Of a stretch of DNA of 1,043 bases, positions 2 to 1,010 are shown in pieces. This stretch comes from Naegleria gruberi (Eukaryota): assembly GCA_000004985.1 (NCBI GenBank), contig GG739598.1. One strand, given 5' to 3'. Position numbers and translations under genes: made by a program. The first letter of the stretch is position 1. Every line of letters begins with the position of its first letter. The notes beneath the pieces are model-generated. The model saw nothing but the letters and a program-made list of their open reading frames with translations. It was not told the origin of the DNA and made no database searches.

Positions 2-127
2 TTTATAACGAAACAAGTTTCATTCAAAGTAAAGGAAATTAAAGATGTGGATTTTCAAGACGAAACTTTTATCAGTTTCACATTGAAAGGTTTTGATTAT
101 TCTGTTGGATTGGTATGTTTAGTTTGA
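2..127 (+). CDS. Open reading-frame segment entering from the 5' edge in the same frame as ORF1, closed by TGA at 125-127. It translates as FITKQVSFKVKEIKDVDFQDETFISFTLKGFDYSVGLVCLV*. It is either the C-terminus of an upstream gene or an upstream exon of the CRIB gene.
   Basis: I hand-translated the frame with codons starting at 2, 5, 8 and so on. It has no stop for 41 codons in AT-rich sequence, where stops are frequent. The amino-acid composition is protein-like and not low-complexity. It is the same frame as ORF1 167..448. No ATG lies in this frame; the only ATG nearby (45-47) is in another frame and is followed by a stop at 84-86. Confidence 0.3.
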   Translation, partial: FITKQVSFKVKEIKDVDFQDETFISFTLKGFDYSVGLVCLV

Positions 128-160
128 TTTAGAATATCTAATTCTTACATTAAACGAAAG
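113..160 (+). other. Candidate short spliceosomal intron (GTATGT donor, CTAAT branch-like element, AAG acceptor). It would splice out the TGA at 125-127 and join the upstream open frame to ORF1 in phase 0.
   Basis: GTATGT at 113-118 follows a complete codon (ttg 110-112). CTAAT at 138-142 lies about 19 nt upstream of the AG at 159-160. Resuming at 161 keeps the frame: ...SVGL|RLLENTEK.... This is the only frame-preserving AG downstream of the donor before ORF1. An AAG acceptor is non-canonical, which is a weakness of the call. Confidence 0.2.
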
Positions 161-166
161 CGATTA

Positions 167-448
167 TTGGAAAATACTGAAAAATTCACTCAAGACTTTC
201 TTAATCTTTTACGAGAAAGGGCCGAGCATTCGAATTTGGAATTGGAAAGGCCAATAATTCCCAAACAAAAGAAACGATTTTCATTCATGTTTGGATCACT
301 TTTATCAAATCAAAACGAAACTAAACAAGCAACAACACCTCGATTAAGAATTTCCCTTCCTCACACTGATCAATTCAAACACGTTAATCATGTTGAATGG
401 GATTCTGAATCGAAACAATTAATTTACAAAGAAATGAATCATCCTTAA
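167..448 (+). CDS. Small CRIB/PBD-motif protein, a probable Cdc42/Rac (Rho-family GTPase) effector of the Gic/Borg/SPEC/RIC type. Stop-to-stop the frame is open from 128. The annotated TTG start at 167 comes from the prokaryotic-style ORF caller and is probably not the real start. The first in-frame ATG is at 287. It is likely a 3' exon or C-terminal portion of a longer CDS.
   Basis: The translation contains I-S-L-P-H-T-D-Q-F-K-H-V-N-H-V-E-W-D. This matches the CRIB consensus I-S-x-P-x(2-4)-F-x-H-x2-H-V-G-(aromatic)-D at every conserved position except G->E. It is preceded by the polybasic PKQKKRFSF. Codon usage is coherent: AAA, GAA, TTG and ATT are favoured. The stop TAA at 446-448 is followed by AATAAA. 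Confidence 0.75.
   Translation: MENTEKFTQDFLNLLRERAEHSNLELERPIIPKQKKRFSFMFGSLLSNQNETKQATTPRLRISLPHTDQFKHVNHVEWDSESKQLIYKEMNHP
260..403 (+). other. Polybasic patch (PKQKKRFSF, nt 260-286) followed by the CRIB motif (ISLPHTDQFKHVNHVEWD, nt 350-403). This is the membrane-binding plus GTPase-binding module typical of small Cdc42 effectors.
   Basis: I mapped residue positions from the ORF1 translation. I62 is at 350-352 and D79 at 401-403; K33-R37 are at 263-277. In the Gic1/2, Borg and SPEC families a basic cluster sits immediately N-terminal to the CRIB motif. Confidence 0.6.
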
Positions 449-463
449 ATTTAAAACATCCCT

Positions 464-487
464 AATAAAGTTTCGAATAGGAATAAA
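464..487 (+). promoter_or_regulatory. Two canonical AATAAA polyadenylation hexamers (464-469 and 482-487), 16 and 34 nt downstream of the ORF1 stop codon.
   Basis: The sequence reads cctAATAAAgtttcgaataggAATAAActg directly after TAA 446-448. A U-rich stretch (gtttcg, ttatttc) follows, as expected for downstream elements. Confidence 0.4.
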
Positions 488-572: not shown

Positions 573-1010
573 ATGCGAAAAAAATGGACAACATCTAGGG
601 CACGGAATTTAACTTCCCAACAACAAGAAAATGATTCGGATGGACAAAATGAGAAAAATACAGCTGTGGAGCAACAATTGGCTCCAAAATTGCTTACTAA
701 TTTTTTCAATAGCATTACAAAACTTGATCGGAAAGAATTGGATAAATTTATTGATTGTGATAAGATGAATAGAGATGAGGATGGAATGAATTTGGGTTGT
801 GATGTTGTATTGAAACAAAAATTGTGGGGACTCTCTGTTGGACATGTTTTGGTTAATCGAAGTGATGATGAAGTATGTTCATGTTCGGAGGGTAGAGATT
901 CAATGATTGAGAAAGTGAATGAAATGTTAATTTATTTGATGGATTTGGGATTGGATTTGAATGTGGAGGAGAGGAAGAGTTTGATGAAACCAGATTCATC
1001 TCGCTGCTAA
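573..1010 (+). CDS. Hypothetical 145-aa protein with no recognisable domain. It has a basic N-terminus (MRKKWTTSRAR), a Gln/acidic stretch, a CxC pair (VCSCSEG) and an acidic, Leu-rich C-terminus (MDLGLDLNVEERKSLMK).
   Basis: This is the first ATG in an open frame that begins after TAA at 510-512. The start context is A-rich. Codon usage matches ORF1: TTG for Leu, GAA and AAA favoured, no CTG. The stop TAA is at 1008-1010. The overlapping antisense ORF is low-complexity, which supports the + strand as coding. Confidence 0.55.
   Translation: MRKKWTTSRARNLTSQQQENDSDGQNEKNTAVEQQLAPKLLTNFFNSITKLDRKELDKFIDCDKMNRDEDGMNLGCDVVLKQKLWGLSVGHVLVNRSDDEVCSCSEGRDSMIEKVNEMLIYLMDLGLDLNVEERKSLMKPDSSRC

Follow-up and report, generated by a model that had tools for sequence, protein, structure and literature searches.

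CRIB motifs follow the consensus ISxPx(2-4)FxHxxHVG[FW]D, the Gly of which is nearly invariant in known CRIBs. Motifs that depart from the canonical form, with altered binding requirements or nucleotide preference, have precedents in the Par6 semi-CRIB and the CRIB-like motifs of coronin 7, in which the His residues are missing or the motif is part of a folded domain. ACK (TNK2), a tyrosine kinase with four residues between the Pro and the Phe of its motif and a long GBD C-terminal to it, is a natural functional CRIB protein that departs from the consensus at the HVG end. Coronin 7 is described as preferring the GDP forms of Rac (PMC4585930), and effectors with one or two deviations among the core residues still bind (PMC8847673).

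The energetic contribution of the individual consensus residues has been determined by alanine scanning in ACK and WASP, where the Ile, the Pro, the Phe and both His residues are the energetic hot spots (PMC5500802; PMC6166713). In WASP, no Cdc42 atom lies within 3.5 Å of Gly-251, whose proposed role is flexibility, and the G251A substitution raises the Kd about 10-fold, which is the smallest effect among the consensus residues, while the flanking Val-250 and Trp-252 touch Val36, Phe37 and Tyr64 (PMC6166713). The WASP fragment 201-254, consisting only of the basic region and the CRIB and ending right after W-D, binds Cdc42 with a Kd of 32 nM (PMC6166713).

In Gic1/Gic2, SPEC/CDC42SE, Borg/CDC42EP, the plant RICs and C. 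elegans F09F7.5 and T23G5.3, the CRIB is the sole recognisable feature of an otherwise unconserved, largely disordered protein. It is placed centrally in the SPECs and in the N-terminal part of Gic2, and both Gic2 and SPEC have a basic, phosphoinositide-binding stretch N-terminal to it; a role in electrostatic steering or acidic-lipid contact has been reported for the basic region of WASP, for Gic2 and for the SPECs. CRIB proteins confined to one lineage, with no homologues outside it, have been described, F09F7.5 and T23G5.3 being examples (PMC8847673).

The stretch of DNA analysed here, which we call the window, is 1043 nt long and has a GC content of about 31%. Its features are as follows.

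2 to 112, plus strand: part of an upstream coding exon; frame 2 has no stop here up to the edge of the window, with the translation FITKQVSFKVKEIKDVDFQDETFISFTLKGFDYSVGL
113 to 160, plus strand: candidate 48-nt spliceosomal intron; GTATGT is the donor, CTAAT at 138-142 resembles a branch site, and the acceptor AG lies at 159-160
161 to 448, plus strand: likely last coding exon, including the TAA at 446-448; a predicted helix (LLENTEKFTQDFLNLLRERAEH) is followed by a polar tail with the basic cluster and the CRIB motif
263 to 280, plus strand: basic cluster K-Q-K-K-R-F, net charge +4, separated by 23 residues from the Ile of the motif that follows it
341 to 403, plus strand: CRIB-like motif with flanking basic residues, matching the consensus at 9/10 positions and matched by PF00786 and by WASP chains in the PDB
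395 to 397, plus strand: GAA codon for the Glu that replaces the consensus Gly; a single transition separates it from GGA, which the window uses most often for Gly
464 to 469, plus strand: AATAAA, possibly a polyadenylation signal judging from its sequence, 16 nt after the stop
573 to 1010, plus strand: ORF2, 145 aa, with an ATG start, 124 nt downstream of the stop of the first gene

We judge it somewhat better than an even bet that positions 161-448, likely spliced to the exon ending at 112, specify the C-terminal portion of a protein peculiar to one lineage, in an AT-rich, gene-dense eukaryote, and that the tail of this protein would end in a minimal, working Cdc42/Rac-binding CRIB. The motif, its statistical significance and the open frame are results of this analysis; we infer the eukaryotic origin, the splicing, the disorder of the tail and the binding to a GTPase.

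Frame 2 of nt 341-403 reads RLR-ISLPHTDQFKHVNHVEWD, with R-L-R encoded at 341-349 and the Ile-to-Asp segment at 350-403. The core residues I, S, P, F, H, H and V are all present in the ISxPx(2-4)FxHxxHV spacing (ISLPHTDQFKHVNHV, nt 350-394), with a Pro-Phe spacing of 4. Against the whole consensus, 9 of the 10 defined positions match, as do 7 of the 8 Burbelo core residues, only the Gly being missing. The sequence-only reading had reported a CRIB consensus with 7 of 8 conserved positions and a Gly-to-Glu replacement, and the frame-2 translation and this score confirm both its coordinates and its peptide. All five hot-spot residues of the CRIB (Ile, Pro, Phe and the two His) are present, and the residues equivalent to Val-250 and Trp-252 of WASP are kept.

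The closest local sequence is that of WASP/N-WASP, which also has basic residues N-terminal of the motif. When the PDB was searched with the tail by phmmer, the WASP CRIB chains 2k42, 1cee and 1ej5 were three of the four matches, at non-significant E-values of 0.15-1.8, with FKHVSHVGWD of WASP aligned to FKHVNHVEWD here. For a protein ending just past W-D, the best functional analogue is the WASP fragment 201-254. The two motifs differ in that the Pro-to-Phe spacing is 2 in WASP and 4 here, and in that Gly-251 of WASP corresponds to Glu; furthermore, the basic region of WASP abuts its motif, whereas here it is short (+4) and 23 residues off. No VCA or proline-rich region was found, the protein stopping after the CRIB. 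Nor was there a WH1 match in Pfam for the 37 or more upstream residues available, where such a domain would be incomplete, truncated at the edge of the window. The upstream fragment 2-112 as a whole has no match in Pfam or the PDB. In a low-confidence AF2 model (pLDDT 40), the upstream fragment has a strand-strand-strand-helix order, the layout with which PH-like or WH1-like folds end. That the fragment and the helix might be such an end is speculation only, as the idea has no support from Pfam or the PDB.

The 4-residue Pro-Phe spacing is shared with ACK, which differs in having a kinase and a long GBD C-terminal to the motif. A kinase after the CRIB, as in PAK, Ste20 and Cla4, was not found in the window: the motif is followed by the stop at 446-448, by AATAAA and by ORF2, which has no kinase match. 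With the Gic, SPEC, Borg, RIC and C. elegans proteins, the tail shares a CRIB as its only recognisable feature, placed here at the extreme C-terminus. Word-indexed and phmmer searches revealed no similarity to Gic, Borg, SPEC or RIC outside the motif, and ISLPHTDQFKHVNHVEWDSESKQLIY does not fit the extended Borg consensus ISxPLGxFRHTxHxGxxG..D.FGDxSFL (quoted in PMC8847673), which in Borg/CDC42EP goes with CI/CII (BH) domains. The basic cluster does not adjoin the motif either. The protein is thus not demonstrably a member of the Gic, Borg, SPEC or RIC families, whose arrangement had been proposed for it, nor of WASP or PAK. Unlike the Par6 and coronin-7 motifs, the motif here keeps both His residues and differs only at the Gly.

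The polybasic patch claimed upstream of the motif does exist as KQKKRF, 23 residues away, but it is statistically weak and does not adjoin the motif as is reported for Gic2. Among shuffles, 6% had at least four K/R in five residues within the 40 residues preceding the Ile-Ser core, and 16% had them when any upstream position was allowed. The cluster is real but within chance (P ~0.06-0.16).

As a profile-based assessment, we scanned all versions of the ORF against Pfam. PF00786 (PBD) was the sole family matched in every version, scoring 14.9 bits (E=0.035) for the 106-aa ORF (128-445) and 16.0 bits for the 41-aa tail, while the spliced and read-through versions reached 14.0-14.3 bits; E-values were 0.016-0.065 overall. 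All of these scores lie below the gathering score of 21.3 bits, so the significant PF00786 match looked for in the HMM comparison was not reached. Only profile positions 2-21/22 of 59 align. The extended GTPase-binding domain beyond the motif (profile ~22-59, a hairpin and a helix) is missing, with the stop 14 residues after W-D, which leaves a minimal CRIB. Both the Glu substitution and the missing C-terminal half of the domain account for the sub-threshold score: changing the Glu to Gly in silico added 5.6 bits, giving 20.5 and 21.6 bits, about the threshold, and the Gly revertant had WASP or N-WASP in all of the top six places of the PDB search. The proposal that the protein is a CRIB effector therefore stands in part, with the consensus match, PF00786 as the sole family and the WASP CRIB as best match in the PDB in its favor, and with the sub-threshold score and the lack of family similarity outside the motif against it.

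The Glu at the Gly position calls for separate consideration. The replaced Gly had been held to contact the switch region of the GTPase, which the WASP data cited above contradict, given that Gly-251 makes no contact and G251A costs only about 10-fold (PMC6166713). A charged Glu is, however, a larger change than the Ala tested in WASP, and we count it against a working CRIB. We also count against it that no homologue was found in the searched collections. In a rival explanation, the motif has true CRIB ancestry but lost useful binding when Glu replaced the Gly and the C-terminal half of the GBD disappeared, so that the gene would be a relic, a pseudo-effector or re-used for another partner. 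It would fit this explanation that the Pfam score is sub-threshold with 5.6 bits lost to the substitution alone, that GAA is a single transition away from GGA, that the protein stops so soon after W-D, and that it is an orphan, as expected of a fast-evolving or decaying gene. The frame is nevertheless intact and coding-like, all five hot-spot residues are kept where decay would lose them at random, the Gly is the residue that matters least in WASP, and truncation after W-D leaves 32 nM binding there. We regard such degeneration as possible but unlikely.

The consensus match is far beyond chance. The next best consensus score in any of the six frames was 5, the best score was 7 (obtained once) in 300 nucleotide shuffles and 6 in 5000 amino-acid shuffles, and the analytic expectation for a score of at least 9/10, calculated from the residue frequencies of the six frames of the window, was ~1e-7 per window. 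For an empirical null, the pattern ISxPx4FxHxxHV[G/E/D/A/V]WD was back-translated and scanned in metagenome_contigs, prokaryotic genomes and IMG/VR. This degenerate DNA pattern had 0 matches in 596 Gb of prokaryotic genomes and 0 in IMG/VR; its sole match in metagenome_contigs (L001) was rejected as chance, being GC-rich, with an in-frame stop and Thr in place of Ser.

Homologue searches gave a consistently negative result. A word-indexed search of 5.8 billion clusters returned nothing for the spliced 132-aa protein or for ORF2, exact look-ups found no record of the product of the CRIB ORF or of ORF2, scans of metagenome, viral and prokaryotic genome collections with back-translated peptides gave no match, and the phage and plasmid collections held no DNA similarity. 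The sole phmmer match of the 106-aa ORF among 1.84 billion representatives (P0001) was rejected as an artefact, since it is a 1228-aa translated tandem repeat whose score is summed over the repeats; each repeat unit contains ISLPHAANYRHVG, a reminder that partial CRIB look-alikes occur in junk translations. An orphan CRIB protein is not new in kind, because lineage-restricted CRIB proteins are already documented.

If the resemblance were coincidental, the protein would have nothing to do with Rho GTPases. The HMMER E-values (0.016-0.065) are non-significant alone, the motif was picked by eye among uncounted windows and motifs, and the repeat of P0001 shows that partial look-alikes exist. Against coincidence stand the expectation of ~1e-7 per window, the lack of a credible match to the back-translated motif even in 596 Gb of prokaryotic genomes, and a match that reaches past the core to W-D and to the preceding basic residues, as in WASP. 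A chance look-alike is in our judgement improbable.

We went on to consider the gene structure. On the plus strand, frame 2 is open over nt 2-124, has a lone TGA at 125-127, is open again over 128-445 and ends with the TAA at 446-448; across 128-445 it is the sole open frame of the six, with 4-10 stops in each of the others. Enumeration of in-phase GT..AG introns revealed that the candidate intron 113-160 takes out the sole in-frame stop (TGA 125-127) and joins 112 to 161 in phase, with DYSVGL before the junction and RLLENTEK after it. Its CTAAT branch-like site lies 19 nt before the AG acceptor, which is an ordinary AG without a pyrimidine tract. Only 0.3% of the in-frame stops in composition-matched simulated sequence were removable by such an intron (P ~0.003). 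The GC content by codon position is 0.37/0.22/0.25 in 2-112, which is coding-like, as in the other ORFs, and 0.44/0.30/0.25 in 161-448, as opposed to 0.18/0.37/0.12, non-coding-like, in 113-160; the order GC1 > GC2 >= GC3 (or nearly) is found in 2-112, 161-445 and ORF2 and is absent from 113-160 and from the intergenic stretch.

These results indicate that 113-160 is likely a spliced intron joining 112 to 161, and that the ORF 128-448 of the sequence-only reading is probably the last exon plus part of the intron. By inference, the window would hold the 3' end of a spliced gene of a compact, AT-rich eukaryote, with the N-terminus of the protein beyond the window. The translation of 128-448 has no ATG upstream of nt 287, and an unspliced eukaryotic product from this ATG would be 53 aa long, without the basic cluster. 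Given a frame that is open to the window edge through the likely intron and has no ATG before nt 287, the earlier claim of a small protein is not established. At the other end, the protein stops 14 residues past W-D with no downstream splice extension, because there is no GT dinucleotide in 404-445. The tail of the last exon is polar and probably disordered; the single-sequence AF2 model gave only low-confidence secondary structure at its pLDDT of 40 and is uninformative.

Several other ways of reading this region were considered and rejected. A 20-nt intron (113-132) shifts the frame into an immediate TAA. A code with TGA as Trp (Mollicutes, mitochondria) would join both open stretches, but TGG encodes each of the three Trp residues of the main ORFs, and the searches returned no prokaryotic relative. 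The ciliate code (TAA and TAG as Gln) is unlikely, as CAA is used for 15/15 Gln residues and neither TAA nor TAG occurs in frame inside the ORFs. A second basic run, I-K-R-K-R, lies at 149-163 in frame 2 just 5' of the proposed acceptor, and the splice removes most of it; if the intron were retained and the TGA read through or recoded, the protein would have two basic clusters. The Rfam scan returned only a meaningless CrcZ match (12.7 bits), and the only repeats in the window are short chance matches.

A frame that is open by accident, in DNA that is non-coding or a pseudogene, and never translated would account for the missing ATG in 128-286 and for the absence of the product from the records covered by the exact look-ups. 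Open stretches of at least 106 codons arose somewhere in 17% of composition-matched 1-kb simulations, which makes ORF length alone weak evidence; the joined open stretch of 147 codons arose in 1.5% (P=0.015). As it is, the frame is the only open one of six, the others having 4-10 stops, it shares GC1>GC2>GC3 with ORF2 whereas the intron and intergenic segments do not, and a highly specific motif in exactly this frame would be a second coincidence. We consider an untranslated frame very improbable.

The least probable explanation is a non-eukaryotic one, a compact AT-rich virus or intracellular bacterium in which an ORF ending at TGA 125-127, a CRIB ORF of 93 aa (TTG start) or 53 aa (ATG start) and ORF2 would follow one another and the CRIB ORF would encode a secreted mimic capturing host Cdc42/Rac: all ORFs do share a strand, spaced by 39 nt and 124 nt, the two complete ones are ORFans and the GC content is 31%, but the prokaryote-genome and viral collections hold no relatives or copy of the motif and the phage and plasmid collections no match, no sigma-70 promoter, Shine-Dalgarno or intrinsic terminator signal rises above chance in the window, the in-frame stop falls within the strong candidate for an in-phase intron, AATAAA follows the TAA stop, and the unspliced product from the ATG at nt 287 lacks the basic patch.

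Downstream of the first gene, the spacer is very short (124 nt, 449-572), and its AATAAA lies ~105 nt before the next ATG. ORF2 is likewise an orphan: the homologue searches and exact look-ups returned nothing for it, and no Pfam family scored significantly. Its product has a basic N-terminus and an acidic middle part with Cys residues. The stretch 750-975 has a strongly positive GC skew (~0.7), and the long open frames on the antisense strand (609-845 and others) seem to be a side effect of composition. A second GTATGT at 873-878 inside ORF2 (codons E-V-C) is probably coincidental, because splicing to the in-frame AGs that lie up to 25 nt further on would make the intron too short to be plausible. 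The codon preferences are CGA/AGA, GGA, CAA and TCA>TCT>TCG. The short spacer, these preferences and the 48-nt intron resemble a nematode-type compact or operon organisation, although the 3' splice site is not TTTCAG.

Returning to our preferred reading, a tail that carries a working CRIB, we propose by analogy with WASP, ACK and PAK that the tail would be unstructured alone and would bind by the standard dock-and-coalesce route. The Ile would dock on a nucleotide-independent hydrophobic patch of a GTP-bound Cdc42/Rac-type GTPase, and the P...F-x-H segment would then pair with beta2/switch I as an intermolecular beta-strand. Asp38/Tyr40 would be engaged by both His residues, with the V and the W packing on Val36. 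R-L-R, and possibly KQKKR, may provide electrostatic steering or contact with acidic lipids. Binding is expected to be weaker than that of canonical effectors, because the hairpin/helix half is missing and a Glu replaces the flexible Gly; affinities would fall in the range of tens of nM to uM rather than sub-nM.

One further possibility, to which we give little credence, is that the C-terminally short CRIB with Glu for Gly is a lineage-specific functional class and not a weakened copy. Such a class might serve as a minimal GTPase 'cap' which, having no effector domain, would compete with real effectors for active Cdc42/Rac. Another possibility is that the acidic residue would redirect the motif to a different Rho-family member or nucleotide state, by analogy with coronin-7 and Rac-GDP. 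The CRIB could also stand behind a PH-like or WH1-like fold, in a WASP-like N-terminal half without actin-nucleating output.

Taken together, these results make it plausible that the protein is a divergent, lineage-specific Rho-GTPase (CRIB) effector. Such a protein would open no new mechanism and answer no long-standing question. If the tail binds active Cdc42/Rac, the protein would join the lineage-restricted non-kinase CRIB effectors, which annotation pipelines routinely overlook owing to the conservation of only ~16 residues; it also illustrates that a single substitution can drop a real-looking CRIB to near the Pfam threshold. If our reading is true, the protein would also be a natural experiment on the Gly, the one consensus residue thought to give flexibility and not contact.
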